Source of the DNA: an uncultured Candidatus Marinamargulisbacteria bacterium
Lineage (GTDB): Bacteria; Margulisbacteria; Marinamargulisbacteria; CAYINU01
Length of the DNA: 45,874 nt
Reading direction: 5' to 3'
Assembly: GCA_964364855.1 (NCBI GenBank)
Contig: CAYINU010000004.1
Location: forward strand, 1 to 45,874
The translations under genes were made by a program, and so were the position numbers. Each line of letters starts with the position of its first letter. Positions within the stretch are counted from its first letter, which is position 1. The notes beneath the pieces were generated by a model. It saw nothing but the letters and a program-made list of their open reading frames with translations. It was not told the origin of the DNA and did no database searches. Of the stretch, positions 14,901 to 33,908 are shown in pieces.

Positions 14901-17900
14901 AGAGTCCCCCGTCGCGATCAAGTCGCGGTTAGAGGCCTCCCGCAAGATGTTGAGTTCTTCCCATTGGTCATACAGGTCGGGTTGGGTTTGACGATTATAA
15001 GGGTTGGCTGCCGCCAACCCAAAATTCGAGCCTCCCAGGGCACCTGGGTTGCAGTTACCCGAAGAATAGGGGTTGTAGTTGTAGTTTTCCCGGATCGCAT
15101 TCGCAGGACCTGCCGTCTGGCCCACGCCAGGCCATAGGTTCCAAAAAGAGTTTCTAAATTGCACATTTTTTTGGTATCGGGTTTCGGCCACGCGGGTATT
15201 GGTACGATTGGCCCAAACCAACTGGTTCAGGTCAAAATTGACCAATTGCATCACGGTGCTGAGCATACCAAATCGTTCTTCGATAATGTCTTTTTCCTTG
15301 CCGCCCCACTCCGCTTTTTGACGTCCGGCCATATCGGCAGCAGCGGTGCGGATGGCATCTGCGATGAGCATCTGAACCATGACCCAGGATCGGATGGCCT
15401 CCTGAGCCAATTGCAGGCGGATGCGAATTTGCATTTGGCTATTGCGGTTGATGGATAGGCGGCCTCCTCCGACATTGATCATTTGATTCTCCAGGTTGAT
15501 CATGTCGTTCATTGCCGCTCGTTCAGCATTGAGGTTGCGGCGCAATTGACGCTCCGCATGGGTTAGCCCCGGTGCATTTTCATCCAACGCCGGAACCCCA
15601 TATCCCGCATTGAGCAGTTGCTGGTAGTTGGCCTGATTCAATTGATCCGGGGCAGCTTCTTGGGCCGTGCCGTTCGCCAAATCCCGGCTGCGGGCAGACT
15701 CCCCGATGCCAAATAACCCCGCCACAAAACCACACACAATGGCGATAACACCCACAACGGCAGCGGCTACCGCACCCACTCCCGACATCGCCAACCCCGC
15801 AGCAACAATACCCAGCACTAAAGCAATAGCATTAAAAATGCTTTGGAAAGCCCGCAGGATCCGCCGTCCCAAGTCTTGGAGCTGATGAAGTTCTATTTCC
15901 ATACTCTTGATGGTATTTCGAAGGCTCATTTCAGTTTGGGAATAGGTTTGTACCTTGCTCAGCCAGGTTTGCTCGAGGTTCATGCGGGCTTGCTCAAACG
16001 AATAGGCGGCCATTCCGACCTTTTTGCCGGATGTGACTTTCCGGCCTGTGCCCGCCGCATCAGCCAGCTCCTGGGCCGCACCTTCGATCGTCGTGATCAA
16101 AATTTCTTGAACCATAAACCAGGCTTTGCGATGCTCGTTCATGATTTGAATGGATTGACGGGTATTGGCAAACAAGCCTGAATTGAATCGGTTGTACCCT
16201 GCACTACTGCCCGCGGTGGTATCCACATGGCCATCGGCCGAGAAAACGGCATTCGTTCGGATTTGGTCTCGGGCGGACTGTTGATTGATCGTGCCTGTCT
16301 GATTAAAGGCACCGCCCAAATTGTTGGCTTGGCTGCCGTCAGCCAGATATTCGGCGCCCAGCATCTGGATGCGGGTGTTGGTCACGGACCGGCGGTTGGT
16401 TTGCACGATATTGGCATAGGCCGTCGTGGCAGCAATCTTCTCCATTTGTTTTTGAATTTTATCTTCATCCGCTAGCCAAATGTCTTTGCATGCCGAATTC
16501 ATGCCGGAGTGGGCTTCTTCAATCTCCTCCATCGCCTCGCGGTATTCGGCCTCGTTGTAATCGTCGATGGCCTGGACAAAAAGATCCTGCATTTGGCCAC
16601 TGGTCTCACTGACTTTGCTGGTATATTCACCAAACTTTTCTTGGACCTTTTTGCGCGCAGCCGAATGACCTTCCCCATACACACCGGTCATGTCGAAAGC
16701 CGATTTTTCGATAATATCGGCGACCAGATACGCAATCGACATAAACGTGGTCAAAATCTGCATCTGCATCAAGATGCGCTGATAGTCGGTTTGGATGCGG
16801 TCATAGTTTAAAAGGCGGTACCGGGTATTTCCTGAAGCAGGCGCGTAACTCCAATAGGGGCTGTTGGTGTTTTCGGTGTTGAGATTATTAAAGTAATTGT
16901 TAATGTTGGTCTGGAGGTTGCCAAACGAATTGGCCCCGGAAAACATGGCTGCCTCGATTTGCCGGAGCAGCGGAGGAGTCGTATTTTGCGAGGCAGTCGA
17001 AAAGCCGAGCAAGTCGTTTTGAGAGATGCCATCGCCCAAAACGGTGCCGTTGACCGAATAGGTGAAATAGAGCCGATACAGGCTGGATACGGTGGGTGCC
17101 GGCGCCTCGCTGACAGAGCCAATGACTTGACCCGTGGTCAAGTCCAGCGCGTGCACATTCCCTTGCGAATCGGTGTAGTTCAAGACGGTATGGCCCACTC
17201 CGGTATTCGTATTCAGATAAGCGGCCACCGAAACACGGCCTGCCGCCTCGGGGCCCAAGGCCGCAGCTGCCAGGCTGGCAGCCAGATTGGTCAGATCCTC
17301 GCAGTCGCCACCGCCCCGCAAAATCGTTTCTGCCGCAGTCGACCAATGGTCTTGGGCGTCGGCTTGGTATTGAAAATGGCTGACGACGTGATTGTAAATG
17401 GCCGTCATGATCTGGTCTTCGGTCAGGCCCATCATGCCGTTGGGAGGTGGGAAAATCTCCTGCAACAGAGACACCACAGCCGGGTCATCGGGATCGATAA
17501 ACGTATGGGATTGGGTGAAATCGATAGCCGGGGGTGGCAGGACCAAATTGGAAACCACATCCTGAAATCGGATGGTAGTGGAACCCGCCAAATTGGGCCG
17601 GGAGAGTGCAGTCGGTAACGTGCTGGTATCGATATAAGACGCCGCGGAAAACGGCACCACATTTCCGTTAAGGTTCACCGTTAGGACTTGTCCGTCTTGT
17701 AATTGAACCTGGATGCCCTGCTCGACTTGTCCGAAGTGGGTAACCCCCGAGAACAACTGAGACCCGGCAATCGTCCCGTCCAGCCGAAGCCGTTCGGCCA
17801 CTTGCGCCTGCAGATCCCGAATCTGAGTGGGCGTGAGCTGACCACGCAGGGCTTGGACCGACTGGAATGCCCGCCCCAAAATCCCCGCCGGGGTGGTATC

Positions 17901-18215: not shown

Positions 18216-19025
18216 TTAGGTCGACTGATCTATGATCGGCATTTCAAAGGCAGATTCTTGCATCGCGATCCATTGGTTGTACGGGTCCAAATAATCCTTC
18301 ATATCTGCAGACGGCGAAATGGTCTTTTCCACCACAAAATTGACAATGGCCGGCGTCACCATACTGGCAAAGGGGATGCCGTCTTTTCCCTTGATCTTGA
18401 CCAGCATCACGGGCCGCTGATGTTTGATGGCCATCATCAGTGAAAACGGGATGGGTCCCAGACCCACCCGCGCCCTTGCGCCCTCGACCAAGTTGAACCC
18501 CCGGGCCAGGTAGGGCTCCACGAAAAACGACTGATGTTGGTAGTCATGGATGGAAAACGGCTGGGGTTCGCAATACCCCATGATGTGGGTCAAAAAGTCC
18601 CGATCCGATTTCGCCACCGACCGCATAATGGCCCGCATGACAAAAAACAACGGGCAATTGGCATAGCGTAGTTGCGTCACACGAGACGTAAACCCCGGCG
18701 GAACCATCACCAGCTTTTTGTAGCCCAGTGCAGTGAAACCCAGCAGATATTCCACCGGGTCCTCGTAGGCGAATAGAATAATGGCCCCCTTCGCACGGGT
18801 CAGCGCCGGATCCCGCCGGACAAAAATGCTGTTAAAGGCAAAATACAGCCAGAGCCACCTCCGGTAAAACCGCGACAGGCGTTCGTGGTTGCCGGTAACC
18901 CGGTACATGATCCACATCGGCAGATAGGTCCCCCCAAAAACCAATACAAAAGGCACATGCTGCAAAAACAGCAAATAGGTAAAAAGGGTATCTGCTACCG
19001 TCCGCCATAACCAGGTAAAAATCAT
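18216..19025 (-). CDS. membrane protein with degenerate PlsC/LPLAT acyltransferase-like region, ~269 aa
   Basis: Start re-called to ATG 19025 (ATGA overlap with the upstream small ORF; track start 19115). N-terminal TM region; later segments VEGAR and MMAIKHQRPVMLVKIKG resemble PlsC PEGTR and LA...PIVPV.I.G blocks, but there is no HxxxxD. Confidence 0.6.
   Translation of the reverse strand: MIFTWLWRTVADTLFTYLLFLQHVPFVLVFGGTYLPMWIMYRVTGNHERLSRFYRRWLWLYFAFNSIFVRRDPALTRAKGAIILFAYEDPVEYLLGFTALGYKKLVMVPPGFTSRVTQLRYANCPLFFVMRAIMRSVAKSDRDFLTHIMGYCEPQPFSIHDYQHQSFFVEPYLARGFNLVEGARARVGLGPIPFSLMMAIKHQRPVMLVKIKGKDGIPFASMVTPAIVNFVVEKTISPSADMKDYLDPYNQWIAMQESAFEMPIIDQST
18233..18262 (-). promoter_or_regulatory. 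candidate sigma-28-family promoter for the giant gene
   Basis: TGCAAG-N15-TGCCGATCA within the 3' end of the upstream gene, ~35 nt before the TTG. The -10 part resembles FliA/SigD GCCGATAA. Confidence 0.4.
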
Positions 19026-19159
19026 GACAGCAGATATCCCACCAGGACCTTCAGCACCAAGATCAAGCCAATCACCAGACCGATAATGGTCGGCAATACC
19101 CGTAAAAACCGGCAAAAATAGAGCCGGACCAGGTCTTCGCGTTTAATCCGGTAGGTCAT
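19022..19159 (-). CDS. 45-aa small membrane protein
   Basis: MTYRIKREDLVRLYFCRFLRVLPTIIGLVIGLILVLKVLVGYLLS; AAAGG 7 nt upstream; overlaps the stop of the upstream gene and the ATG of the downstream gene. Confidence 0.5.
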   Translation of the reverse strand: MTYRIKREDLVRLYFCRFLRVLPTIIGLVIGLILVLKVLVGYLLS

Positions 19160-19700
19160 CGCTGGGCCTTTCTTTTTCCTCCAGGCGCACATTGAATTGT
19201 CCTTTTTTCTGATGGGCCGCGATTTGGGCCTGGATCCGGGCTTCGCGGTCAGCTTGCGTGGCGGCCGGTCCGGCGGGTGACACACCCATCGGCAAATCCG
19301 GCGTAACCTGCCCCCTCGCGGGCGCTGGCGGTGCCATGGCGGCGGCCGGGGAGGCCGGCCGTGGCGCAGCCGGTGGCAAGGGGAAGGGCTGGCTGGGCAA
19401 TGGCGTGGGGACCGCTTTGGGTCTGCCGTAGCCCGCCAGGATTGCCTTGGTTGGGGGATGGGATTTCAGATGGCGGTCAAAGTCTGCCGTAATCTGGTCC
19501 ACCTGCTCCGAGAGGGTACCGGTCAGATCCTGGGTGAAGCGCTGACCCTGTCGGAGATCGGTTTGGTGTTCCACATACCATTCCGCCATTTTGAGCAAGG
19601 CCTGCTGTTCGGCCAGCACCTCGGGACCCGCTCCCCTTTCCCGCAGGACAGCGGCCTCTGCCCGGGCTTGGCGAATGGCCTCGTCCATCGGGCCGGTCAT
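19143..19700 (-). CDS. hypothetical protein with helical N-terminus and Pro/Ala-rich linker, 185 aa
   Basis: Start re-called to ATG 19700 (ATGA overlap with 19697..19939); linker PTPLPSQPFPLPPAAPRPASPAAAMAPPAPA. Confidence 0.65.
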   Translation of the reverse strand: MTGPMDEAIRQARAEAAVLRERGAGPEVLAEQQALLKMAEWYVEHQTDLRQGQRFTQDLTGTLSEQVDQITADFDRHLKSHPPTKAILAGYGRPKAVPTPLPSQPFPLPPAAPRPASPAAAMAPPAPARGQVTPDLPMGVSPAGPAATQADREARIQAQIAAHQKKGQFNVRLEEKERPSDDLPD

Positions 19701-19939
19701 GGCTCTCTCACTTGTTTGAAATATTGGGTCATAGCCGCGTCGGTTTCTAGTGTTGCCAGTAGCCGGTTTTTGGTCAGGGCTTTGCTGGCCCACTGCAGCC
19801 GGATCTGGGATTCATCCACTACCATTTCGGCCACGCGCTTGGCCTGACGGGACAGCCGGATGCGCGTCACCGTGGTCAGCACAACCCCGATCCACATCGC
19901 CAAAACAGACACCCATGCAAGCCACGCGATCATGTCCAT
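19697..19939 (-). CDS. small membrane-anchored protein (N-terminal TM + helix), 80 aa
   Basis: GAGG RBS upstream; TM IAWLAWVSVLAMWIGVVLTTV followed by a basic/helical tail. Confidence 0.65.
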   Translation of the reverse strand: MDMIAWLAWVSVLAMWIGVVLTTVTRIRLSRQAKRVAEMVVDESQIRLQWASKALTKNRLLATLETDAAMTQYFKQVREP

Positions 19940-19987
19940 TATTGTACCTCACTTTACACGAGTCGAGCGTGGGTTAAAACCGCCATC

Positions 19988-22900
19988 TCAATACATCGGT
20001 CCGCGGGAATACATCGGTCGGAGGGCAGTCGCAGCAGGCTGGCTCCGAATTCCGATAGAGATGTAATATTTCTGTAACAACTCCATCCCCGGATACTCCG
20101 GCAACCTTCCTGGGATATCTGGTTTCCAATCTCCGCTGACAAGGTAAGATTTAAGATTCGCCAGCTGACGGTCCGAAGCCCGGGTATCCATGGCCTCCAA
20201 GGTCGCACCGACCCGCGCTATTACGCCTTGTTCCCAGTCGCGCACTGCCGGCGCCTTCAAGTCGGAGCCATCCGGCAAAGGAATACCCGCTTCCTGCATT
20301 GTGCGTAGGGCATACGTCAGGCGGTCAATATTATTGCAAAAGCTCATATGTTGGGGCACCTGCAGCCGCGCAACACGCAGATGGGCTTCCATTTCCGCCA
20401 TCATTTCCGCGCGCTGTTGGGCTATTTGTCTCTCGAACGCTTGAAGGTCGGTCTCCCGCTGTTGCTGCAATGCGGCCAATTGGGTTCGGAGATCGGCATT
20501 TTCTGTTTGTAGTCTAGCGTTTTCCGGTCGGAGTACGTCATTTTCTTCCCTGACCGGTCTCAGCTGTGCTTGACTCTCAGTCAGCTCTCTTTGAAGTCTT
20601 TCAAGGGTCTGTTGTAATGCCTCGTTTTGTTGTTGTGCAGCTGCTAATACTTTGTCAATTCGTTGCTGCGCAGCCCGGGCATCGGTAAGTTGTTGTGTCA
20701 ATTGGTCTCTCTCTTTCTCCGACGCCCGCAAGCGAACTGCAAGATCCGCGTTGGTGGTGTCCACATCCGTTAACCGGCGTACCGCTGTTTCCGCTGCTTG
20801 CAGCTTGTCAGTTTGCTCAGCCATTTGCTGTTTCAAATCAGCCAGTTCAACAGCAGCCTTATTCGCAGCGGCCTCAGCTGCTGCGTGTTGCTGTTCCAGC
20901 TCGCGCTGATGTTGGGCAGCGGTCGTATCTTTTTCTTGTACTAACTGTTCAAGGTGGACAGAAAGGTCTTTAGCCTGCTGTTCCGCTGCACGTTGGGCTT
21001 GTACGACTTCCCGAATTCGTCCGTTCAAGGCTTCGTTGTCACTCCGCACAGTGGCACTATCATTTCGAGCTGTGGCCAATTCCCTTTGAAGTAGCGCCAA
21101 AGTATGTCCAGCAGAAGCGGCTGTTGCCCGCGCGGCTGCCCGCTGCATAACGAACCGTGCATTTTCTGTTGCAGATCTGGCAGCCTGCGCCTGTACTGCT
21201 ACAACTTGTTCGGCAATAACGCTATATCTCACTTCTCTCTCTTCGATTTCAACTTGAAGCTCGTTAATTTGCCTGTGATATTCTTGCTGTTGGGTTTGCA
21301 CTGTCTCCTCTAGTTTAGTAGCCCGTCCCCTCGCTTGATCCACTTGCTCTCTGACGCCCTCAAGCGCTGCCAGTTTAGCTTGAAGCACTCTTATTTCGTC
21401 GTGTTTGCCACTCAGTTCGTTCCGTATTCGATCCAAATCTTCTTGCAGAGCCTTAATGGTTTGGTGAGCTTTATCAAGTTGCTGGGCTATCTGCAGCGTC
21501 TGCCAGTCCGTTTGGACCCCAACATCTGCCAGCGTTAATCCCCCATCTCTTTTGGGAGAGAAGTCTGCATCTCGCAGCTCGTCCCCAAGAGATGCGCCTG
21601 AGGTATCTACCTCAGGCCGCTGGTCTGCAGCTTGCGCTTCAGCCCATTGCCTTTCAAGGGCTGCTTGAAACTGCTGTGCTAGTGTGACTTTCACCTGGGC
21701 CTCTTCCAACCGATGTTGCAACTCCGTTACTTGTTCCTTGAACAGAAGCGCCGATTCAAGTTCTCTGGTTAGTTTGTTAACTGCCTCTTCAAAGTTGCTC
21801 GCTTTCGATATCAACTGTGCATGTTTAAGTTCTAAATCGCGCAGCCGGCTATTAGACTTCCTCAACTCCTCCGAAAGGCTATCCCTCTCCCTCTCGGTTC
21901 CTTTAAGTCTGGCCAGAAGCGCACCCTCTCTCTGCTGTGCCTCCCGCCGCGGAGTCAGCACTTGTTGGCGAAGCTCGTCTATTCCCAGTTCACGTTCGCG
22001 TAGCAATTGAGTGCTGTCGGCCAGCCTACGTACCAAGGCTTCGTTTTCACGTCTACTCGCCACAATTAGAGCCGCTTGTTCTTGGACCTGAGCCTGAACC
22101 TCTTCCAAATTGATCTCAGTGTTCGCGACGAGCTTCTCCATCTGTTGGAGGGTTCTCCGAAGGGCTGTTACTGTTTTTTCAGCTGTCTCCGCCCTTTCGG
22201 TCAATGTGGCGTTGGCGGCCTTTTCATCTTCTAGCGCTCGTACTACCCGTTCCAAGTCACTAAAGACAACCTGTGCTTCTTGAAGGCCCTCTTCTAACGC
22301 CGCATTACGATCACGCAGTTTCTGACTTCTAGTTTCTACTTCCTCAACATGCTGTTTCGCAACCGTTACAACTTTCATGATCAGCTCACGGATCACGTCC
22401 GGGTTTACACCGGTCTCTCTGGCAAGCGCAGAGATGGCGGCCTCGGTCCCATCATTAACACTGCTGGGTTCCTGCTCCTCTTCCCATGCAAGCCGAGTCG
22501 ATGGTCTCTGTGATGCAATCTGCTCGGCTATCGTTTTGCCATCGGGCAACGACACTTGTTCCAAAAGCCTTTTTTGTATCAAAGCCTGCCTCATTAACCC
22601 ATCACGTTCATCTAACTCGGCTTGATAATGGGCTGCTCCAATCTGTCCTATCAAGGCTCGACATAAGGTTGTTCTCTCACCGGGAATTCCCAAATCGGTA
22701 GGATATTGCGTCATGAGATCATTAAGTATTTCCAGCCGTTCGGTAGAAGATTGACGTTTCTTATTGTCAAGTACCTCCCCGAGGTTCCGTCTAAATTCGT
22801 CATTATCCCGCTTGGCATTTTTCATATGAGCCAAAAGACGGTTGACAGTACCAAGCTCCGCTATGAGCATCTCCGCTAGCTTATTAGCCGTGCTAACTCC

Positions 22901-23161
22901 TGCTTTTCGAAGTATTTCCTGAGCCATGGTAACAGGATCGAATGTTCCCTTTTGACATGCCTCCCATACTAGTTGCGCATAGCGTTCCAAATTCTGATCC
23001 ATTTCCTGTCTGATTTTTCTTCCATCTTCTGTAAGGTAAGGGGATGTAGTACCCGATACGGTCCTGGCCACCGGCTCCGAAAGAGAAAGTGCCCCACTCC
23101 CGATGATGAGGGGTGCATTTAATGGATTTAATGGAGAAGAAACTGCCATTCGTCTTAGCAT
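19988..23161 (-). CDS. long coiled-coil protein, 1057 aa (candidate secreted effector or tether)
   Basis: ATG preceded by AAGGGG; Ser/Pro-rich N-terminus; E/Q/L/A/R heptad-rich from ~aa 260 to 940. No Walker A motif, so not SMC. Confidence 0.85.
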   Translation of the reverse strand: MLRRMAVSSPLNPLNAPLIIGSGALSLSEPVARTVSGTTSPYLTEDGRKIRQEMDQNLERYAQLVWEACQKGTFDPVTMAQEILRKAGVSTANKLAEMLIAELGTVNRLLAHMKNAKRDNDEFRRNLGEVLDNKKRQSSTERLEILNDLMTQYPTDLGIPGERTTLCRALIGQIGAAHYQAELDERDGLMRQALIQKRLLEQVSLPDGKTIAEQIASQRPSTRLAWEEEQEPSSVNDGTEAAISALARETGVNPDVIRELIMKVVTVAKQHVEEVETRSQKLRDRNAALEEGLQEAQVVFSDLERVVRALEDEKAANATLTERAETAEKTVTALRRTLQQMEKLVANTEINLEEVQAQVQEQAALIVASRRENEALVRRLADSTQLLRERELGIDELRQQVLTPRREAQQREGALLARLKGTERERDSLSEELRKSNSRLRDLELKHAQLISKASNFEEAVNKLTRELESALLFKEQVTELQHRLEEAQVKVTLAQQFQAALERQWAEAQAADQRPEVDTSGASLGDELRDADFSPKRDGGLTLADVGVQTDWQTLQIAQQLDKAHQTIKALQEDLDRIRNELSGKHDEIRVLQAKLAALEGVREQVDQARGRATKLEETVQTQQQEYHRQINELQVEIEEREVRYSVIAEQVVAVQAQAARSATENARFVMQRAAARATAASAGHTLALLQRELATARNDSATVRSDNEALNGRIREVVQAQRAAEQQAKDLSVHLEQLVQEKDTTAAQHQRELEQQHAAAEAAANKAAVELADLKQQMAEQTDKLQAAETAVRRLTDVDTTNADLAVRLRASEKERDQLTQQLTDARAAQQRIDKVLAAAQQQNEALQQTLERLQRELTESQAQLRPVREENDVLRPENARLQTENADLRTQLAALQQQRETDLQAFERQIAQQRAEMMAEMEAHLRVARLQVPQHMSFCNNIDRLTYALRTMQEAGIPLPDGSDLKAPAVRDWEQGVIARVGATLEAMDTRASDRQLANLKSYLVSGDWKPDIPGRLPEYPGMELLQKYYISIGIRSQPAATALRPMYSRGPMY

Positions 23162-23225
23162 CTCAACCCCTTCTCACCAACGTGTTCGCACACGCACAAC
23201 GTGACCGACAATACTGCATTCCACG

Positions 23226-23254
23226 TTATCGTCAGATAGGCAAGCGAACTTGCA
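23226..23254 (-). promoter_or_regulatory. candidate sigma-28-family promoter for the coiled-coil gene
   Basis: Intergenic TGCAAG-N14-TGACGATAA, ~65 nt upstream of ATG 23161. Confidence 0.45.
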
Positions 23255-23260
23255 GGAAAA

Positions 23261-24310
23261 CTAGGCTTCGGAGACGGGCGAAAAGAAGTCGAAAATCGCC
23301 GCCCAATAGTCCGGTGCTTTCACGCGGTTGAGGGGTTCCACCCACCGGTACACCAGATTGGACGCACTTTCCCGCTTGATCTCGGCCTCCTTGCCCAGGT
23401 TATGGACCAAAAATAAAATCAATAAACCATTGACCGTTGCGATGTCCGGCACAGCTGCCACCGCCATCAGTCGGGGCAAGGACCGTTCGTGCCACGCACG
23501 GATAGCCGCATGCACGGCCGGCCATTGCGGTGTGCCATAGGCGGCATCAGACCCCAGCCATAACACAATAAACAACGCATAAAAATAGTCAAATAACGGC
23601 GGTTGATCGACCTGGTAGTCTTCCCAGTCCATCACCACGATAGCGTCTTGGTTCCACCCGATATTGTAGGGGTTGAAATCCCCGTGCAGGCCGGCCAGCG
23701 GCACCTGGGCGGACACGACCTGGGCCAAATCTGCCCGAAAGGCCTCATACACCTTTTGCAAAATGTCGGTCACATAGGCCGAGTTGGGAGATACGCGGGC
23801 AAATATGCCTTCGGTCCAGGCGGTAAAAACCGCGGCATCCAGCCGCCCACTCCCTCGCGACCGCTGGGTCCAGCGTACCAGCCATTCCGTCACGCGGTCG
23901 GCACGTGCGGCATCAAACTGGCCGGTTTTGGCCTCCTGGGTAATCTGCTGGTACCAATGGATATGCGGCAGGTAGGACGCCACCACCCAGAGCCGGCTAT
24001 CGGCATAAAACATGCCCAGGGGTCGGGCCACAGTATCGCCCAGGCCCATTTCCCGGGCCTGTCGGAGGGCATGGACCTCGTTTTGCAGGCTGGCCTGGGC
24101 CACCGCTGAGGCAGTCTGACCAAATTTCATGACGGCCACTGGCCGGTCGTGATCACAAACGGTCAGAACCAGGCACCGGTGGGAGGATTCTTTGCGAATT
24201 TCATTGAGAAAAAACCCCATATCGGCAGGCCAGGTGAGTTCCACCTCTGCCGCATGGGCGCGCAGGATGGCTTCGATTTCGGGCATTTTTTGGACCGGTC
24301 TATCCGTCAT
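23261..24310 (-). CDS. aminoglycoside phosphotransferase/choline kinase-like (APH family) phosphotransferase, ~349 aa
   Basis: VAVMK, NEVHAL, Brenner motif HGDFNPYNI and metal-binding VMDWE. Start re-called to ATG 24310 (overlaps the upstream stop); the track start of 24547 lies deep inside the upstream gene. Confidence 0.8.
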   Translation of the reverse strand: MTDRPVQKMPEIEAILRAHAAEVELTWPADMGFFLNEIRKESSHRCLVLTVCDHDRPVAVMKFGQTASAVAQASLQNEVHALRQAREMGLGDTVARPLGMFYADSRLWVVASYLPHIHWYQQITQEAKTGQFDAARADRVTEWLVRWTQRSRGSGRLDAAVFTAWTEGIFARVSPNSAYVTDILQKVYEAFRADLAQVVSAQVPLAGLHGDFNPYNIGWNQDAIVVMDWEDYQVDQPPLFDYFYALFIVLWLGSDAAYGTPQWPAVHAAIRAWHERSLPRLMAVAAVPDIATVNGLLILFLVHNLGKEAEIKRESASNLVYRWVEPLNRVKAPDYWAAIFDFFSPVSEA

Positions 24311-25172
24311 GGCGTTTTCGGTGGAGGCCGCCACCCTGGCAGACGTGGTTAAACCAAAACAGGCATTGATCACAGGCCAAAAATGACGGCACCACAAACC
24401 GCAATTGCGCCTCTCGGTCTGCCAGCATCCGCCGCGCCAGTTGCGGGGTGGGAAACGAGCTACGATCCCAACGTTCGGTAAACGCGGGGTCCCAATGGGC
24501 AAGTTTGCCATCCGGCAGTATCCGGAACCACCCACCCTCGCCCACAAACCGAAACACGGTTCCCGATGCGTTCAGCACGTCCAGCTGGTCGGTATTAAAT
24601 TGACACATCACCACCAGGTCCTCGATCACGGTTTTGTACCCCGCTCCAAAGGCCACGGATACCAAGTTGATGATCGCGGGGGTGAGGGCCTTCAGGCCGG
24701 TCAATGACTTATCTTGGGCCACCCGGACGCGTAAGACGGGATACAGCTTCAACTCCCGCAACAGCGGCAGAAGGTAAATGAAGTTTTCTGCGGGATCATC
24801 CAAGGTCACGGAGAGCGTAACCCGGGTATACCGTTTTTCGGAAAAGGTTCGCAAATGGGACTCCAGAGCCTCCCAGGCCGCCTCCGAATACCGCTGTGGA
24901 TTTTGAAGCAACACCTCGGTTTCGGAAAAGGTTCGCATGATCACCTGCCGCAATTCAGGCCGAAAGAGGCCGTTGGTGCGCAAAATGGCATAGCGCCGCG
25001 GCGAAATCAGCTGCTCGCACAGCTGGATAACAGCGGGGTTTTGGGTGGGCTCTACCCCTTCAATGACAAGCTGAATTGACGGCGGTATCCAGGTCAAGTC
25101 GTCCGCAAACGTCTGAGGAGAAAGTTGGCGGTATCGCGAGCCGTCTTGGTCATTCCAGACGATAGCGATCAT
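24300..25172 (-). CDS. degenerate radical SAM/SPASM-like protein, 290 aa
   Basis: GVEPTQNP (cf. GGEPxL), LRTNGL, ILPDGK and a SPASM-like CDQCLFWFNHVCQGGG; the N-terminal CxxxCxxC is absent. Confidence 0.65.
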   Translation of the reverse strand: MIAIVWNDQDGSRYRQLSPQTFADDLTWIPPSIQLVIEGVEPTQNPAVIQLCEQLISPRRYAILRTNGLFRPELRQVIMRTFSETEVLLQNPQRYSEAAWEALESHLRTFSEKRYTRVTLSVTLDDPAENFIYLLPLLRELKLYPVLRVRVAQDKSLTGLKALTPAIINLVSVAFGAGYKTVIEDLVVMCQFNTDQLDVLNASGTVFRFVGEGGWFRILPDGKLAHWDPAFTERWDRSSFPTPQLARRMLADREAQLRFVVPSFLACDQCLFWFNHVCQGGGLHRKRHDG

Positions 25173-25500
25173 CGTTGCGAATGGTTTCCAAAAAAGTCGC
25201 GGTTTTTCCCAACAATTGCCCTGCGACTTCCAGCAGGATGATTTGATCCTCTCTGGGCTGGGCCAAGAGGGTCCGAAAATCCGCGTCCAGCCGCGTCAGA
25301 TCGTCATGATAATGTTGCAGTTCGTGCTTTAACGCGGCATAGGCCGTGCGCTGCGGCTCGGGCAGGGGATGTTGCACGATGTGGGATACACTGGCCTGAA
25401 ATTCGGCCACCACGCGGCGGTACTTGTCCACCGTCTCCATCGTGGACCGGATCAAGCCTGCAATCCGGTCGACCACGTCCCGAGAGATCGTCTCGCCCAT
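25150..25500 (-). CDS. small helical-bundle/coiled-coil protein, 116 aa
   Basis: TAATG overlap with the hook-like gene; amphipathic helices. Size is chaperone-like (inference only). Confidence 0.7.
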   Translation of the reverse strand: MGETISRDVVDRIAGLIRSTMETVDKYRRVVAEFQASVSHIVQHPLPEPQRTAYAALKHELQHYHDDLTRLDADFRTLLAQPREDQIILLEVAGQLLGKTATFLETIRNDDRYRLE

Positions 25501-26387
25501 TACGAGACTTTGCTGATGAAGTCGGTAATCACCTTGTTGATCGTCGTCAGCGACGACAGCACCGCGTTATACCCCCGCTGTAGCTGAATGCCCAGCACGG
25601 TGATATCGGCAGGGTTCACGTTCGATGCCTCTGCCGCAGTGCCTTGGACGGTGGAAAAACCGGCCTCACCGGACCGGCCATACGCGATGGGGTTTCCCGA
25701 TCCTGTAGTAGGCGAATACGCACTGCCTTCGATGGGCGCGATCTTGGAGGGATTGGCAAACTTGGCCAAGCCCAGTTGGAATAACGCTGTCCCGGGAGGG
25801 ATGATGGTATTCGCTTCCTGGCGCTGGCGGGCAGTCTCTCTGGCATTGAAATTGGTCATCAGCACACCATCGGTTTCAAAACCGACATCAAAAAGGTCTT
25901 GCGTTGTCGGATCGAGAGTGATGGGAACCAATCTTGAGGTATCCGCCACACCGTTAACGACGCGGTATCCCATGACCGAACGACCGAAACTGTCTTGTAA
26001 CCGTCCCGACGAGTCAAAGGTAAAATCCGATTTTCGTTTGTAGTAAAACTGGCTGCCAATCGCGGCTTGGACCACGAAAAAGTCCTGACCGATAACAGCC
26101 GCATTTAACGCGCGTCCGGCCTTGATGGACCCTTGTGTAAAATTGATACCGGTCGGAATCAGAGTAAGCCCGGATGGAATGTTGGCCGTTGCAGGCGCAG
26201 CCACACCACCGTGGGGACTGGTACCGCCGGATACGGCCGTCATGGATTTGGAAAACAGAGACTGGAACGTGTAATCCGTTCCTTTATAGGCGTCGTCTTG
26301 GAAATGTTGTAAGTCAGCAGACAGGATTTGAATAGCATTGACGAAAGCCTGGAGGGAGTTTTGCGTCGTCGCGAACATATCAAACAT
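25500..26387 (-). CDS. divergent flagellar hook/basal-body rod protein (FlgE/FlgF/FlgG family), 295 aa
   Basis: FTQGSI...LNAAVIGQDFFVVQ...YYKRKSDFTFDSSGRLQDSFGRSVMGY; GLAKFANPSKI; C-terminal EASNVN...LQRGYNAVLSSLTTINKVI matches the LExSNVD...QRxYxANxxxIxTxD pattern. AGGAG RBS. Confidence 0.85.
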   Translation of the reverse strand: MFDMFATTQNSLQAFVNAIQILSADLQHFQDDAYKGTDYTFQSLFSKSMTAVSGGTSPHGGVAAPATANIPSGLTLIPTGINFTQGSIKAGRALNAAVIGQDFFVVQAAIGSQFYYKRKSDFTFDSSGRLQDSFGRSVMGYRVVNGVADTSRLVPITLDPTTQDLFDVGFETDGVLMTNFNARETARQRQEANTIIPPGTALFQLGLAKFANPSKIAPIEGSAYSPTTGSGNPIAYGRSGEAGFSTVQGTAAEASNVNPADITVLGIQLQRGYNAVLSSLTTINKVITDFISKVS

Positions 26388-26399
26388 GAAAGGTCTCCT

Positions 26400-28208
26400 T
26401 TAGGCCGCTTCGTCTACTGCGGGAGTCGAGATACGACGAACCGTTTGCCCCACTTGGATAAAAATATCCTCCTCTATACTAGACTCTTCCTTCAATCGGT
26501 TCAAGATTTGGATAAGCTGCTTACGCTTTCGGGACAAGCCGATCGTTTCAGACACTTCCATGCGCAGCTCCAGGTCATACAGCTCCTGGCGTACGGTATC
26601 AAACATTTCTCGGTTGGCTTTATTTTGCATGCTGGCTATCTCGGACTGGCTAACCGGTTCCCCCATATCAGACAGGCGGTTCAGGATGTCCGTCTTTTTG
26701 GTATTTAATATGTCAAAATCGTCGCCTTTGAGCTCAAACAGCGTGGCCTGCTCCAAACACAGTTTGTAAAACTCATCCAGCATGGCACCGCGGGCCAACA
26801 GCTGGCCCTCTTTTTCGACTTGGGACAGAACCTGATCTTCGATACCCAATTTGATCAGGCCGTTTTTGGCCCGGAAAATCTTAAAAGACAGCTCCAACCG
26901 CGCACGCAAACCGGGATTTAGGGCGCGGGCCATATAGAGCAGTCGCAATTTTTCTTCCAATTTTTCTTGGGCAGTCAAAATACGCACCTCAGGCGGCTTT
27001 TTTTGCTCTCCAGACTCGTGATCAAAAAAGCGCATCCCCCCCGAAGATACCCCCATACCCGCGGCCATGGCGGCAAAATCTGCCGCCCCCAGACTGTGGA
27101 TATAACGGGTTACCCGTTCCATTATGGGAGCGGTTAACACCGGTTCGCCCGTGATTTTTTCCGATATTTTTTGCAAATGCAGAATTTCCTTTTCAAACTT
27201 CGGCCAATCCTGGTCTCCGATATAACGGGAGAAAATATTGCCGGCTTCCTCGGCAACAAATCCTTTTAATTCGCTTTGAAACGTTTCATGTTCTTTGACA
27301 AACAATTGCTGGAAAGGCAATCGGCCAGCCGAGTACTCGTCCTCGGACTGGTAGGTATCCAGCATATGCTTCATGTCACGATAGGCCTGGACGCCTTCCG
27401 CATCACCTTTGGTATGGCGGGCAAAGTAGTAACGCATGACGTTTTTACGCACCAAATAGCTCAACGTATCCGAAGTCGCCTGTGCAACCCGAGTTTCCAC
27501 GGACACGCGCATGTCTTGGGTCACGCCCTGTTTTTCCATTTCCCCCCGTGAGGCGATGAGGGCTTTTTTATTTTTCTCATTTTTGTCCAGCAAATATCGG
27601 GCAAAGGCGGTGGAATAGGAGCGCACGGCCGTCTGCACATCGGACTTGGCAAATAGCCCTGTGGTGTCCCGACTGTCGTCGTGGCGGCTCATCTGCCGCT
27701 GTTGTTCCAGGGTCTGAGCGGTCCCCGGCATGGGAGCACTTTTGTCTTTGTGCGGGTTCCGAGCGCCTACCTGGCGGGAGTCAGACTCCTGGCGTTGCTT
27801 GCGTTGCAGCTGCTCGCTACTACCGGCCTGGGCTGAAACCGTCGCGGCATCCTTGTAATTTTCCTTTGATCCAAACCATTTCTTGGTTTCGGCTTCCAGC
27901 TCTTTTTCCAATTTTTTGCTCAAGACATTTTTTTGTTGCGTTTTCAGACGAGTCTGATCTTGCTCCGAAAAAATCTGGGCCAACGTGGCTTCCCGGTCAC
28001 CAAAAATCAGGTCCGAGGTCTTGTGCTCTTTTTTAGCCTGGGTTTTCTCTTCTTCTTCTTGTTTGGTTTGGCGCTGCAACAGCTGCTCCAGCGTCTGTGG
28101 CTTGGCATCTGCGTCAACCGATTTTTGCTTCTCAGGCCGAACGTCATCGTCATTCCATTTTCGCCCCTCAGAAACCCGCCCCGATGACCCCCCGAAGATT
28201 TCAGCCAT
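26400..28208 (-). CDS. hypothetical protein, charged disordered N-terminus + helical repeats, 602 aa
   Basis: Long ORF with an 8-nt overlap with the GT2 gene and a GAGG RBS; no family recognised. Confidence 0.8.
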   Translation of the reverse strand: MAEIFGGSSGRVSEGRKWNDDDVRPEKQKSVDADAKPQTLEQLLQRQTKQEEEEKTQAKKEHKTSDLIFGDREATLAQIFSEQDQTRLKTQQKNVLSKKLEKELEAETKKWFGSKENYKDAATVSAQAGSSEQLQRKQRQESDSRQVGARNPHKDKSAPMPGTAQTLEQQRQMSRHDDSRDTTGLFAKSDVQTAVRSYSTAFARYLLDKNEKNKKALIASRGEMEKQGVTQDMRVSVETRVAQATSDTLSYLVRKNVMRYYFARHTKGDAEGVQAYRDMKHMLDTYQSEDEYSAGRLPFQQLFVKEHETFQSELKGFVAEEAGNIFSRYIGDQDWPKFEKEILHLQKISEKITGEPVLTAPIMERVTRYIHSLGAADFAAMAAGMGVSSGGMRFFDHESGEQKKPPEVRILTAQEKLEEKLRLLYMARALNPGLRARLELSFKIFRAKNGLIKLGIEDQVLSQVEKEGQLLARGAMLDEFYKLCLEQATLFELKGDDFDILNTKKTDILNRLSDMGEPVSQSEIASMQNKANREMFDTVRQELYDLELRMEVSETIGLSRKRKQLIQILNRLKEESSIEEDIFIQVGQTVRRISTPAVDEAA

Positions 28209-29322
28209 GGGCAGTCCTCAGCACACGATCCAGTGCCTCTTCCAGCTCGGGTATAGTCGCGATTTGCCGGGCCATCAGATAGTGCTTTTTGGCCTCATCA
28301 GGATGGTGGGCTAGTTCAAAAATGAAACCCAAGTAAAAATGGGGCTGAAAAACCCGGTCATAGGGGTTGGACTCCAACAGCATATCGTACACGGGTGTTT
28401 TTTCGGTCAGTACTTTTTGAAAGGCATCGTGTGCGGCCTGAAATTCCCGCCGCTGCAAGGCCGTTTTTCCCTTGATGAGATACAATTCCTTGCTCAGTTT
28501 GCCAAAGCGTTTTTCGATCAGCGAGACAATGCGCCGGACCCGGTCGTAGCGACCCTGATCCAGCAAAAAGCGGCATAGATAGTAATAGTGGTTCACTTTC
28601 CGCACGCCTTCTCTTAGGGCTCGTACGGATTTGATGTAATAGTGCATCGCCTTTTTGTTATCCGAGAGCTGGCGGTACCGCTCGGCCATCTGCAAATACA
28701 TATAGGCATGGTCCCGCCATTGGTGGGGAGGGGTCTCGTTTTCGATCTGCTCATAAATGCGGACGTAGTTGCGTACCTTGCGGTCATGCAGTGCGTCGTG
28801 CACACCCTGATAATTGCCCCAATGGTATATGGCCGCGCCGCGGATTTGGGTACGGATGCTAAGCTCCTCTGGCGGATAGCCTGCCAATGACTCGTGAATA
28901 CGATCGATGTAGTGATATCCCTGGTCCGTGCGAAACAGTTTTTCCCGGAAGTTACACAATACGTTTTTTTCGAATCCGTCCAACGTATTTTGATAAACCG
29001 GCAACCAAAAAATGGTGCGATCCGTGTGCTTTACCAGCCGTTCCAGTTTTTTTAGCGAACGGGTTGAAATATAGTCATCGGCATCCAAAAACAACACCCA
29101 GGGCGTCTTGATTTTGGCCAATAAGGCATTCCGCGCCGCAGCAAAGTCCGCGGTCCACTTGAACGCGTGCACCGTCACTCCCCTCTCCTGCAAAAACGCT
29201 TGTGTGCCATCGGTTGACCCCGTATCGAGCACAACGATAGGCAAGCCGGATTTGAGCAAGGGTGGCAACGTGTGAGCCAAGATAAATGTTTCGTTTTTGG
29301 CCAGCATGGCAATGGTGATCAT
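28201..29322 (-). CDS. glycosyltransferase family 2 with C-terminal TPR repeats, 373 aa
   Basis: LAKNE, VLDTGSTDGT, WTADFAAARN, WVLFLDADD, RIHE, IYHWG; TPR-like helices (AYMYLQMAERY...KAMHYY, PHFYLGFIFELAHHPDEAKKHY). Confidence 0.9.
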   Translation of the reverse strand: MITIAMLAKNETFILAHTLPPLLKSGLPIVVLDTGSTDGTQAFLQERGVTVHAFKWTADFAAARNALLAKIKTPWVLFLDADDYISTRSLKKLERLVKHTDRTIFWLPVYQNTLDGFEKNVLCNFREKLFRTDQGYHYIDRIHESLAGYPPEELSIRTQIRGAAIYHWGNYQGVHDALHDRKVRNYVRIYEQIENETPPHQWRDHAYMYLQMAERYRQLSDNKKAMHYYIKSVRALREGVRKVNHYYYLCRFLLDQGRYDRVRRIVSLIEKRFGKLSKELYLIKGKTALQRREFQAAHDAFQKVLTEKTPVYDMLLESNPYDRVFQPHFYLGFIFELAHHPDEAKKHYLMARQIATIPELEEALDRVLRTAHG

Positions 29323-30296
29323 ACCGTTTCCCCCAGCGTCTGATCGGCTTGTTCGTAGTCCACTTTCTCACCGGGAATTTGATGAATTTTATGGATATCC
29401 TGCCCAACTTTGGTCATGCGCGCCAGAATGCGGTCCACGTATAGTTTAAGCTTATCGATTTGTTTTTTAATATCGGATTTGGTCAATGTCTCAACCGGCC
29501 CGCTCACCCAGTGCCGACGCGCACCTGGCTTGGGATCATCCAGCACGAAATGGATTTGGTATTCCTTGTAGTTTAGGTCATTTTGAAGCGGCATCAAAAT
29601 CTTCTGATATTGTTCGGCTTGGATATGCAGAATCGACTCCGGGCCATAGCACTCTTGCTTGGTTAGTTTCTGAACTTGTTCCATGAGGGTTTTTCGAACC
29701 TGCAAAAAGGTACGTTTTCTTCTGCGGTCCCGTCTGGAACTGGAAAAAATATCAACCAAAGCCAAATTATATTCGTTTTGGTCAAACAAGGCTTTGTTTT
29801 CAGCCAAGGCCTCGTCCAAGGCCTCTCGTTGGAGTTTGCCCAAGTCATCCGGAGTCGCGCCCAGCTTGAGCAGCAGCGTCATATCGCGACCTGCCCGCAA
29901 GGCCGCAAATTTGGCCAACAGCAAATTCATGGACCGGGAGGCCTTAAAACTTTCCTTGTATCGCTGACGAAGGGCTTCCAAATTATCCGCAAACCCGATC
30001 AGAAAAGACAAAGATCGCCATACCGCGGACGCATTGAACTTAAACGTCTCCAAAATCCCGGATGCCAGGTGGTCCTGAGCCTGGATTGTATACTGCCCCT
30101 GCTCGTCCTTATTCCAAGCCAGCCCCGCCTGCTTCATCTGCTCCATCGGGTGGATACGCGCCTGGTCTTTAAACGCGTCGAGCTGTGCCTGTTGCTCGGT
30201 TTGACTCTGTTTTTTTTCGGCCTCTGTGGGCGTAGCGCTATGCGAACGCCGGGCACCGTTGAGGTACGAAGAAGGCGAAAAAGAAAACTCGCTCAT
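29319..30296 (-). CDS. hypothetical helical protein, 325 aa
   Basis: GGGAGG RBS; Ser-rich N-terminus; ATGA overlap with the GT2 gene. Confidence 0.8.
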   Translation of the reverse strand: MSEFSFSPSSYLNGARRSHSATPTEAEKKQSQTEQQAQLDAFKDQARIHPMEQMKQAGLAWNKDEQGQYTIQAQDHLASGILETFKFNASAVWRSLSFLIGFADNLEALRQRYKESFKASRSMNLLLAKFAALRAGRDMTLLLKLGATPDDLGKLQREALDEALAENKALFDQNEYNLALVDIFSSSRRDRRRKRTFLQVRKTLMEQVQKLTKQECYGPESILHIQAEQYQKILMPLQNDLNYKEYQIHFVLDDPKPGARRHWVSGPVETLTKSDIKKQIDKLKLYVDRILARMTKVGQDIHKIHQIPGEKVDYEQADQTLGETV

Positions 30297-30317
30297 AAAC
30301 GCCCTCCCGGCGAGTCA

Positions 30318-33109
30318 TCACTCGCTTTTCTGATCACGCTCACGCTCAAGCCTGCGGAGCTCATCTGCCACTTTTTGACTGTGCTCACGTTCTTGTGCTT
30401 CCCGCCGGCGCGCAGCTTCAAAAGTCTGGGCACTTTGCCGATTCCGCCCATCTTCTTCAGCGACGGCCCGTTGCTCTGCTGCTTCCTCTTCTTTTTTTTC
30501 GGCTTCCTTCTGATCATAGCGGTCCACTTCACGCCGATACTCGGTCTGTCGGTTCCAGTTATACGCCGCTGTCATCAATTGTTCCTCAGCCACCCCTTGA
30601 CGAGAAATGTAGGTGAAGGCCGCCCCGGAAAACGCGGGGTTTTCCTGCACCTCAGGAACTTGACCGCGCCATCGTGTCTGGCTGCCGATCGGGGCTGCGG
30701 GAAACAAGTGTCCCCGCGCATCCGAATGAACATAGTAAGCGTTAAGCCGATTGGCTGAAAATGCACGGTCAAAATTGACGGATTGAATGGTACCTGTAGT
30801 CGTGTTCAACGCATATTCATCACCGTCCGGGAACGGCACGGCAACGGTCATCATGGCATTTGCATCCGTATTGCGGCCTTGTCCGTCCAAAATAGGAGGA
30901 CGTTCCGCAACCATCACAGGTGGCTGACGCCGTCCTTTGTCAAATGCATAGCCCACCCCGGTTCCGGCCATCGTCACATAGCCATCATACATAGGCATGG
31001 TGTTATCGGTAGTCAGAATGCTATGGGGAATAAAGTCCCAAGACAGATCATTAAATCCGGTTTTGGAGCCCAAAGACGCGGTATCAAACCCCAAAATAGG
31101 GGTACGCATTTTTTCCGCGCCGGAGTCCCGAGATGGACTACGAAGCAACTCGGCAATGGGTGCCAGTAGGTTTACGGCCTTGAGGCCTTTTTTTGAAATA
31201 TCCTGCATCGTTTCGGTCAGGTTCGCAAAGTTACCGTTGGCCGGAATTTTTCTGGCCTCTTCAAATACGGCGAATTGTTTTTGGTAGAGGGTTTCTAACT
31301 TACGCTTGATTTCGATGTGGTTGTTTGCCGACATATCGGTCGATTCGGAGGAAAGATCATTATAGGCATCTTGGGCGTCTTTGACTGCTTTCCCCAACCC
31401 ACGGTCATAGCCTGTTGCCGCCCCACCCAGATCCGCCAATTGCCTCTCGATTTCACGTTTTCTACTGAGCGGCGTAGACGAGCTGGCAGCTTCCTGGTTT
31501 AAGATGGATACATAGTGGTCATAAGCGGCCTTTGGCGCGGCACTCACGGTACCCAGCGCCAGCTCATCCATCATATATTTAAAGCCCGCCTTAACCGCAG
31601 CCCGTTGGAACAGCATCGCCTCCGGTCCCTCGGTATAGGAGGTACTAGCAACCCTTACAGTGACTCCGCCAGACTCTGTCTTTGTAACCGCGCCCCACCC
31701 GTAACTGTCGTTTGCTAGGGTATCAAAGGCGTTAAATGTCGTATGGGCCGTTTCAAAAAGCAGCATATTGTAAAACGAGGCCGTCGGATCGGTTTGCTTC
31801 GCCACGGTATCGTACCAGTTTTTGATGGACTCCGATTGACGGCGCGTGACTTTGAGCATCTGATCCCAGTCAGAGGCAGATGCGGTTTTGGTCATGACAC
31901 GCAAAACCGAGCCGGTGGGTACGTTCGCATAGTCGGACGCGTCCAACTCGGCCACTGATAAAGAGGATCCCGCCGGCGCCTCCAGGGGAAGATGTTTGGC
32001 AGGCCCCAATATCCGCCGATAGGCTTCCAGCACCCGCCGTTTGCTTTCTAGTAACGATTTTAGAAAATAGTAAAACTTTTCGCCATCCGGCACGCCATTG
32101 GCAATCGTGTCCGAGTCGCGGATCGCGCTCTCTAATCCTAAGTCTTTGTTTTTTACCCATTTGGACCAGGCACCAGACTGAATGATTTCAAAATAATTGG
32201 GCGCTTGGGTTTCGACGGTATCCTTCAAATAGGGATGGGCACCACCGGCACCGAAATTTTCCCAAATGTCGGGGTGAGCCGCGTCGACGACCCACGTTCC
32301 AGAAAAGGGATTGACCACGACATGTGGGATCCCAGAAACGTTATGAAAACCATCTCTGTCAAAACCAAACTTATTGTCCTTCATCAGAACGGCCTGACGA
32401 CTAATCGTGTCCATCACCTGATTGAGCTTGTTCCAATCTGCAGCCACGGCAGCCGCACCCTCAGTATCGACGGCAAATGCGGAGTTATATCCCGAAGACA
32501 CGCCAAAGTCCCACTTCGACCGATTGCTATCGGAAATCTCCAAACTGTTCCACGTGTTTAAGGTATTGTATTGGGGATTCTCGTACCCACCCGCAATACC
32601 ACGAAAAGGATTGATATTATCCAAACGGCCATAGCTGGTTCCCTCGTAGGAATACCCACCCAAGATAGGGGTTGAAGAGTGTATGGAGCTGAAACGCCCG
32701 TGCCCATAATAATTCCCGCGGCCATCGTTGCCAAAGCTCCCGTGGATGTCGTTGTCATCTGCAAAATATCGCGCAACCAAGTTCGGGATTTCCGGAAGGC
32801 CAGGAATAAAATTCCGGGCAGGTGCCGGCAATTCCGGACTGAGGTTCTCGCTGTCCGGGCGAAGCGCCAAAAAGTGCGCATCCGTCCACCATGCAAAGTT
32901 ATTTTGCAAAAAACCCTGATAATACGACCCTGTCATTCCTTTTGCAGGATCGTTGGCAATGAGAGCCACGCGTTCCGGAGAGAAAAACTTGAGCAACTCC
33001 GTCCCGAAATGGGTGGTTACCGTCGCGGCTTTAAAGGCATCCGCATTACCGGTTTCTTTTACCTGCGGCGGGGGGGGGCGATTGGAAAAAAGACGGGGCG
33101 AAGTCCCAT
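30318..33109 (-). CDS. large hypothetical protein (~930 aa if the G9 tract at 33070-33078 is G10; 892 aa from TTG 32996); frameshifted as assembled
   Basis: ATG 33109 with an AAAAGGTGG RBS reads MGLRPVFFPIAPPRRR-stop. One extra base in the tract joins it to the long frame (...PPPPQVKETGNADAFKAATVTTHFGTELLKFF). Gly/Asn/aromatic-rich body and a highly charged C-terminal helix. Confidence 0.75.
33070..33078. repeat. G9 homopolymer (C9 on the coding strand) at the frameshift site
   Basis: acctgcggc GGGGGGGGG cgattgg read directly from the sequence. Confidence 0.9.
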
Positions 33110-33143
33110 GGCTATTCCACCTTTTCTGAAGGAAGATCTCGCA

Positions 33144-33440
33144 CTAGCTAAAGTTACCCAAGCGGCTTTCTAGCTTTTTAACCATATCTAATGCTTCTGT
33201 CACGGTCGATAAGCGGGTACTTAACAAATTAACAGCGATACCAAAACCACTGGCGCCTGACAATGTCGACAAATCATACTCGTTACTATCCACTGTTACC
33301 TTGCCGCTGCCTTGGGCAAGCTTGAGCGCGGCATCTTGCAAGACGCCGATCAATGACTCGACACCTTGCGTAACCGAATTAAACAAATCAGCGTGGGTCA
33401 AAGCGGATTGACGAAATTGAATGTTTTCTGAAATTGACAT
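33144..33440 (-). CDS. small helical-hairpin protein, 98 aa (needle/inner-rod-like architecture, inferred)
   Basis: Start re-called to ATG 33440 after a very strong RBS (AGAAAGGAGG); helix, DLSTLSG turn, then C-terminal amphipathic helix LSTVTEALDMVKKLESRLGNFS. Confidence 0.75.
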   Translation of the reverse strand: MSISENIQFRQSALTHADLFNSVTQGVESLIGVLQDAALKLAQGSGKVTVDSNEYDLSTLSGASGFGIAVNLLSTRLSTVTEALDMVKKLESRLGNFS

Positions 33441-33480
33441 GTGGAGTTCCTCCTTTCTTTTAGAAATTAAAACGCCCAAC

Positions 33481-33502
33481 GGGGGAGGGCTCGCCCTCCC
33501 CC
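33481..33502 (-). terminator. intergenic GC-rich hairpin (partial terminator or mRNA-stabilising stem-loop)
   Basis: Perfect inverted repeat GGGGGAGGGC-tc-GCCCTCCCCC, 19 nt after the stop of 33522..33884; only a weak U tract follows (GTTGGGCGTTTT). Confidence 0.55.
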
Positions 33503-33521
33503 ATCGAAGCCAACGCTATGT

Positions 33522-33884
33522 CTATGAAGACATGCGTTTACCGCCTTCCTTAACGGCGTTAATCACAAGGGTAGCGGCAGATTTGCCAACTTCCAGAACA
33601 GCCGTGGCTGTCGATACTTCCAGACCGGTCTTGGAATAGAATTCCAAGTTACCTTCCTGGGATTTGTTCGTGGTCGTGTCCGTAAAAGCCGTTGCCGTCG
33701 CACTAGGGCCTTTGAGCATCTTGGCAATGGCCTCGTCGGCCGGTTCCGCCAGCTTGGCTACCAGTCCAGAGGTGGCACCGGCAAGCGTAATATCAATTTC
33801 TTTCCCCACATCACCAGTCCCTTTGGCCACGTCACCGCTTTCGAACGTCTTTCCTGATGAGTCTTTAAAATATTCAAATGGCAT
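33522..33884 (-). CDS. small Thr/Ala/Gly/Lys-rich protein, 120 aa (candidate major filament subunit, inferred)
   Basis: Start re-called to ATG 33884 after GGAGG; first gene of the minus-strand cluster; no Cys/Trp/His; C-terminal amphipathic helix TATAVLEVGKSAATLVINAVKEGGKRMSS. Confidence 0.8.
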   Translation of the reverse strand: MPFEYFKDSSGKTFESGDVAKGTGDVGKEIDITLAGATSGLVAKLAEPADEAIAKMLKGPSATATAFTDTTTNKSQEGNLEFYSKTGLEVSTATAVLEVGKSAATLVINAVKEGGKRMSS

Positions 33885-33908
33885 TTTTTCCTCCAAATTT
33901 AAGTAAGT

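Follow-up and report, generated by a model that had tools for sequence, protein, structure and literature searches.

The locus considered here raises the question of whether a run of nine cytosines, which puts the start codon of a gene of about 930 codons out of frame with its body, records a genetic on/off switch or an error in the assembled sequence. The window, that is the whole stretch of DNA that was analysed, is 45,874 nucleotides long and comes from an uncultured Candidatus Marinamargulisbacteria bacterium. The features on which the argument turns are as follows.

33107..33109, minus strand: ATG start of the gene of about 930 codons, as read from the sequence and from the similar length and composition of homologue N-termini
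33117..33123, minus strand: Shine-Dalgarno-like AAGGTGG, with a 7-nt spacer to ATG 33109, read from the sequence
33070..33078, minus strand: C9 homopolymer (G9 on the plus strand) in codons 11-14, part of A-P-P-P-P, one base below the in-frame length
33059..33061, minus strand: TAA closing the 16-codon frame at tract length C9, read from the sequence
30318..33109, minus strand: predicted whole gene at C10, 930 codons plus stop; its orphan-family product has a helical core and, at the C-terminus, a charged coiled coil
32994..32996, minus strand: TTG 32996, the earliest canonical start of the large frame, not accepted as the gene start given its position within the conserved block FG(T/L)ELLKF
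32934..32936, minus strand: internal ATG used by the gene caller for the public 872-aa protein P0001, a truncated version
33144..33479, minus strand: upstream 111-aa ORF, ending in a TAG that shares the phase of the large frame; a similar-sized small ORF stands at the same place in homologous loci

The reading frames of the window point to one minus-strand gene of 930 codons, extending from ATG 33109 to the stop at 30318. This ATG is located 34 nt past the TAG (33146-33144) of the upstream 111-aa ORF. With nine cytosines in the tract its frame reads MGLRPVFFPIAPPRRR and then meets the TAA at 33061-33059, giving 16 codons in all. The large frame is open from 33143 to 30318, 941 codons from stop to stop, and the first ATG, GTG or TTG within it is TTG 32996. 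The span from 33109 to 30318 is 2792 nt, or 3 x 930 + 2, so that one added C yields 930 codons and a stop. In this C10 version the ATG frame reads MGLRPVFFPIAPPPPQVKETG... and continues into the large frame, with codons 11-15 specifying A-P-P-P-P, written as a C run. The break is thus a specific one-base break in a gene that is unbroken in its homologues, and no statistics are needed to recognise it. An earlier note on this DNA had described the same arrangement, and each of its elements was recovered on recomputation: a start at ATG 33109 with a good ribosome-binding site (AAGGTGG, 7-nt spacer) 34 nt past the upstream stop, a span one nucleotide short of a multiple of three, a C9 frame ending after 16 codons against a C10 frame that reads through a poly-Pro stretch into the large frame, and no start in the large frame before TTG 32996.

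A point that the earlier note does not make is that the 941-codon frame keeps the phase of the upstream 111-aa ORF, from which a single TAG (33144-33146) parts it. Their shared phase is probably a coincidence, as the same phase is found in the Marinamargulisbacteria locus L002 and not in L003. A fusion of the two by read-through of the TAG was considered and rejected, the homologous loci containing two separate genes with their own starts. The small upstream ORFs of these loci are only 22-24% identical and are uninformative.

Relatives of the protein are few. A word-indexed search with the 919-aa frame returned three proteins, and a profile search of 1.84 billion representatives identified nine family members at E <= 0.001. 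Matches occur in three of the 41 genomes searched, namely that of the window (G000) and 40 others of the same class, with G000 itself included among the three. To judge from these sequences they form a tiny orphan family, so far seen in Margulisbacteria genomes. Seven homologues (P0003 to P0009) retain their N-terminus, and all seven are single open frames. Each possesses the block NFGLELxKFxSP at least 36 residues after the Met; in six of them it stands at residue 36 to 46, and in the 1638-aa P0009 it comes later. In the C10 reading of the window the block is found at residue 34. Six of the seven also have a Pro-rich opening (MGPTPPPPV, MSYASAPPPI, MAQPTPPR, MKPLAPQP, MMKPLAPQP and MTTKPFRPLP), which the tract-encoded stretch resembles, the C10 N-terminus being MGLRPVFFPIAPPPPQ. 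These Pro-rich starts, together with the position of the block at residue 34 with C10, argue that the gene starts at ATG 33109 and that the tract needs one further base.

The part of the large frame lying 5' of TTG 32996 (NADAFKAATVTTHFG) aligns with FENAFRANVKNTNFA and FKNAFKANLKNINLG of the homologues. Since the alignment extends upstream in this way and the conserved block contains the TTG, neither TTG 32996 nor ATG 32936 is the start. The earlier note had proposed a comparison of orthologue N-termini, with a beginning at TTG 32996 as an outcome that would speak against the frameshift; none of the seven begins there. The public record P0001 (872 aa) starts at the internal ATG 32936 and lacks 58 N-terminal residues, so that the conserved N-terminal block is absent from it. 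The frame is 91% identical to P0002 and carries no further lesion, although the P0002 record begins at LALRP, with no Met, and the true N-terminus is missing from that record. A search for N-terminal fragments of 158-506 aa found none, and in the homologues, at 26-34% identity, no homopolymer is present at the position of the tract.

The length of the tract could be compared with that in independent assemblies of nearly identical DNA. Thirteen public runs contain part of the stretch, their sources being groundwater or aquifer or unlabelled, and the Logan contigs (contigs rather than reads) of four of them, X1, X2, X3 and X7, were compared with the window. The X1 contig is 1651 nt long at depth 6.96 and spans all 1301 bases compared; X1 is possibly the source sample. 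The X3 contig, from another study, is 1176 nt long at depth 7.19 and covers 33000-33700 (701 bases). These are the two contigs that bridge the tract, and both insert a G behind 33069, which gives G10 on the plus strand, C10 in the coding sense, and an open frame; they are otherwise identical to the window over 1301 and 701 bases, respectively. Over 32964-33114 X2 (depth about 5-6) lacks a contig, as does X7 over 32979-33275; these holes are evidence for neither length, and they indicate that at such depths the tract region is hard to assemble. Found in two studies and restoring a frame like that of the homologues, the G10 allele is real. Among near-identical DNA the lengths are therefore G9 in the window and G10 in X1 and X3, at the level of contigs of depth about 7 and with X1 perhaps the source. 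Contigs drop minor or rare variants, so the absence of G9 cannot be read from them. Two wider scans brought in nothing further: with alignment A1, 458 metagenome stretches matched the pattern and none was a relative, and a DNA pattern with a tract of variable length matched seven loci in metagenome contigs, all seven with unrelated flanks and hence chance matches.

Other long G/C runs of the same genome give a second measure. G000 is a 1.88-Mb draft in 137 contigs, 94.5% complete and with 28 runs of N. At C103:3628-3760 a C50 lies beside an N10 scaffold gap with a G15 nearby, which we take to be the poly-G read-end artefact of short-read data carried into the assembly. Outside C103 there are 14 G/C runs of at least 9, against about 13 expected from base composition and roughly 5 if the decay seen in this genome over run lengths 5-7 is extrapolated. 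None of the 13 runs other than the one studied here is associated with a frame break. Twelve of them are inside open frames, and the thirteenth, at C42:14771, is right where a P-type ATPase frame begins. The genes that carry them include cysteinyl-tRNA synthetase (cysS, intact), a GHMP kinase, an MFS transporter, a terpene-synthase-like protein and an AAA ATPase, and the runs are evenly distributed along ORFs, with 3 of the 14 in the first tenth of an open frame. Apparent double frames at two places proved to be only apparent: at C13:28100 there are two separate overlapping genes, with the tract in frame in the first, and at C6:29098/29125 one small ORF is followed by what by eye is tRNA-like sequence. 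MutS was found with 273.7 bits. That the other long runs are unbroken, that MutS is present and that runs are not enriched indicates neither a systematic homopolymer error nor a contingency-locus signature. Genome-wide, the supporting traits of contingency loci, that is tract enrichment, a bias to 5' ends or surface genes and lost mismatch repair, were not found. In-frame PPP triplets, by contrast with expectation, are never written CCCCCCCCC in ORFs of at least 300 codons (0/110, where 4.7 are expected), so that poly-Pro encoded by C's alone is unusual here.

One further tract deserves description. A GT4 glycosyltransferase gene with an unbroken frame has a G9 at C25:5218-5226 (locus L021), in codons 13-15 if numbering begins at the first start, and this run specifies the GG within a ...VRGGAE... 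motif. Apart from the C9 studied here, no other tract has the position of a classic switch.

We judge a miscalled length, or a minor variant, a likelier source of the frame break than a proven on/off switch. The best single account, to which we give about an even chance, is that the gene is intact at C10 and that a consensus miscall at a poly-G tract of low depth has left the window one base short. Under this account the in-frame run length would be ten; the nine cytosines, which put ATG 33109 out of frame, would be either a miscall in the consensus or a minority length chosen by the assembler at a low-depth poly-G in short-read data; and the organism would make the full protein through ordinary translation. 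The gene model, the G10 allele in two data sets and the lack of other broken tracts are shown; the technical origin of G9 we infer, above all from the finding that independent assemblies of near-identical DNA have the in-frame length in two of two bridging contigs. In its favour count also the poor assembly of the region at such depths, the N-termini of the homologues, the unbroken frames at the 13 other long runs, the poly-G artefact in C103, the presence of MutS and a number of long runs close to that expected from composition. Several observations weigh against it. As assemblers seldom make a length up, some data set probably contains G9 reads, and if the genome was assembled from X1, the contig of which is G10, both lengths would be there at comparable depth. 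The tract is the sole difference over 1.3 kb, as a hypermutable tract would also give, and the lack of CCCCCCCCC among the 110 PPP triplets and the excess of long runs (14) over the decay estimate (roughly 5) also count against a miscall.

The principal rival is real variation in tract length. Slipped-strand mispairing would have produced cells or strains with G9 (off) and G10 (on) that coexist in groundwater, whether adaptive or as the by-product of a mutable tract, and would turn a gene for a protein that is probably exported or surface-associated on and off. This we hold as a tentative possibility. As in a contingency locus, the repeat lies in a coding region where a change of length shifts the frame, nine being out of frame and ten in frame. 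The window and the two other assemblies differ as G9 and G10 without any other change, and the tract, in codons 11-14, is just past the start, as in known flagellar-gene switches (PMC3930126). The conserved gene cluster also holds a GT2+TPR glycosyltransferase and an FlgE/F/G-family gene, the spelling of poly-Pro as a pure C run is at odds with the 4.7 such triplets expected and none seen, and a second G9 is placed at codons 13-15 of the intact GT4 gene at C25. The evidence in the other direction is of several kinds. Both contigs that bridge the tract are G10; the genome encodes MutS; its long G/C runs are not enriched over composition, are even along ORFs and occur in housekeeping genes; the homologues, at 26-34% identity, are without a homopolymer at this place; and a Pro-rich motif alone accounts for cytosines there. 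The narrower proposition, that G9 and G10 cells of the aquifer switch a lineage-specific 930-aa protein by poly-C slippage in codons 11-14, appears somewhat less probable again and is doubtful. The earlier note had called a switch and an assembly error equally plausible. Its gene model stands; as to the cause, the evidence leans to error, with two of two contigs at G10 and no signs of contingency loci in the genome.

The remaining explanations fare much worse. It is very improbable that G9 is fixed in the strain, the gene being either a recent pseudogene or the source of a truncated product only, from TTG 32996 or ATG 32936. The window as given is what such a strain would contain, but near-identical DNA in two data sets is G10, and the 91% identity to P0002 extends over a frame with no second lesion; as the rest of the frame is stop-free over 941 codons, any inactivation would be very recent. 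A truncated product is further disfavoured by the poor spacing of its potential ribosome-binding sites, GGAG directly abutting TTG 32996 and AAGGA directly abutting ATG 32936.

Slighter still is the chance of recoding on the C9 sequence, by -1 ribosomal frameshifting on C_CCC_CCC or by RNA polymerase slippage that adds a C. The product would equal the C10-encoded protein, a -1 shift giving MGLRPVFFPIAPPPPQ..., and in the ATG frame the run GC-C CCC CCC formally fits the heptamer X_XXY_YYZ (a formal match only). Frameshifting of the dnaX type is marked by a slippery run and a stimulatory downstream RNA structure, and transcriptional slippage is known mainly for A/T runs. The tract resembles dnaX-type frameshifting or transcriptional slippage in placing a slippery run at a frame junction with a -1 product identical to the C10 product, but unlike these it lacks a stimulatory structure, is not conserved in homologues and has an in-frame DNA allele. 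A shuffle test of the 95 nt downstream found no stimulatory structure for -1 frameshifting (z = +0.55, with 136 of 200 shuffles folding at least as well). Frameshifting is not conserved, as all seven homologues with an N-terminus are single frames, and the G10 DNA allele makes recoding unnecessary. Recoding is unlikely. The least probable explanation of all is that TTG 32996 or ATG 32936 is the true start, which would place the tract in a leader that is not translated, behind a 16-codon upstream ORF. The gene caller did pick ATG 32936 for P0001, and no canonical start precedes the TTG in the frame, but the TTG is within the block conserved in all seven homologues with an N-terminus and NADAFKAATVTTHFG, upstream of it, aligns with their FENAFRANVKNTNFA and FKNAFKANLKNINLG.

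Comparison with known systems places the preferred reading, a miscall of tract length, beside the homopolymer miscalls that split genes in draft and metagenome assemblies. As in those cases, the difference is of one base only at a run of 9-10 G/C, the depth is low (about 5-7), and poly-G artefacts occur in the short-read scaffolds. The likeness has limits, as short-read assemblies mostly get such runs right and here 13 of 13 other long runs are frame-intact; papers on gene-fragmenting indel errors, for example PMC12007338, concern long reads. Among biological switches, the nearest are the phase-variable homopolymeric tracts of the Campylobacter and Helicobacter flagellar genes flgR, flgS, flhA and fliP (PMC3930126). 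These are likewise short coding homopolymers in which a change of +/-1 base truncates the protein. The gene studied here is clustered with an FlgE/F/G-family gene, yet it is not a known flagellar component; and while Campylobacter and Helicobacter are host-adapted and have many tracts, the genome here has MutS and no excess of tracts, and the data are at contig level. Phase variation by poly-G is also described for pgtA, the pilin glycosyltransferase gene of Neisseria gonorrhoeae (PMC2193922). The pgtA gene resembles the present locus in having a coding-region poly-G linked with surface glycosylation, and differs from it in that its switching was shown experimentally, whereas the two lengths here are known from assembled sequence alone. 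Moreover pgtA is a glycosyltransferase, and the protein here is not, though one is encoded two genes downstream.

The main value of these results is for annotation: the true N-terminus is a Pro-rich stretch followed by NFGLELxKFxSP, and it is easily lost in a family with only nine members among 1.84 billion representatives. In addition, holding a tract up against independent assemblies and against the remaining long runs of its own genome is a cheap check. If a mixture of G9 and G10 were true, the switch would be of a well-known type and unusual only in its host; a contingency locus would then be at work in an uncultured, free-living groundwater bacterium that is related to Margulisbacteria and proficient in mismatch repair.

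The protein itself has few recognisable features. The 919-aa frame has no match in Pfam or NCBIfam, none of the nine family members matches any flagellar family, and an Atlas search gave no usable match. Identity with FlgK or flagellin was considered and rejected, there being no match to Flg_bb_rod, flgK_ends or Flagellin_N/C; the best TIGR02492 score in the genome, 26.7 bits, belongs to a gene elsewhere. An AlphaFold model built with nine sequences has a mean pLDDT of 55.5; in it, residues from about 330 to 650 form a helical core and residues 814-917 a long helix at the C-terminus. Foldseek found no match in the PDB at E <= 0.001. In the wide VIA-align search the best matches, up to Z 8.8, a value below the meaningful level for helical models, were generic four-helix bundles and coiled coils over residues 492-648 and 834-919.

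The gene belongs to a set common to Margulisbacteria genomes, found in the window at 18216-33896 (minus strand), at L013:5001-12031 and at L014:1-7590. In the Marinamargulisbacteria locus the order is the 919/930-aa gene, a 325-aa gene, the GT2+TPR glycosyltransferase, a 602-aa gene and the FlgE/F/G-family gene; another homologous locus has the same genes in a different order. The FlgE/F/G-family gene (window 25500-26387) matches TIGR03506 with 90.1 bits, above the cut-off of 70.25, and the other members of the conserved set have no family match over cut-off. FlhA is encoded elsewhere in the genome (817 bits, C17:1047-3017). Flagellin_N, Flagellin_C and an over-cut-off FlgK were not found genome-wide, which in a genome 94.5% complete is to be read as not found rather than absent. 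The organism may have a flagellar-type export apparatus with unrecognisable filament proteins, and it is our guess that the protein is a lineage-specific exported part of such a flagellum-like apparatus. Also in the window, at 2913-18197 on the minus strand, lies a giant open frame of 5094 codons, for which, as for other neighbours of the gene, Pfam gives no match over cut-off, the only hint being a sub-threshold Transglut_core (18.1 bits, cut-off 23, near residues 264-312); it includes a G8 run (12318-12325) without a frame break.
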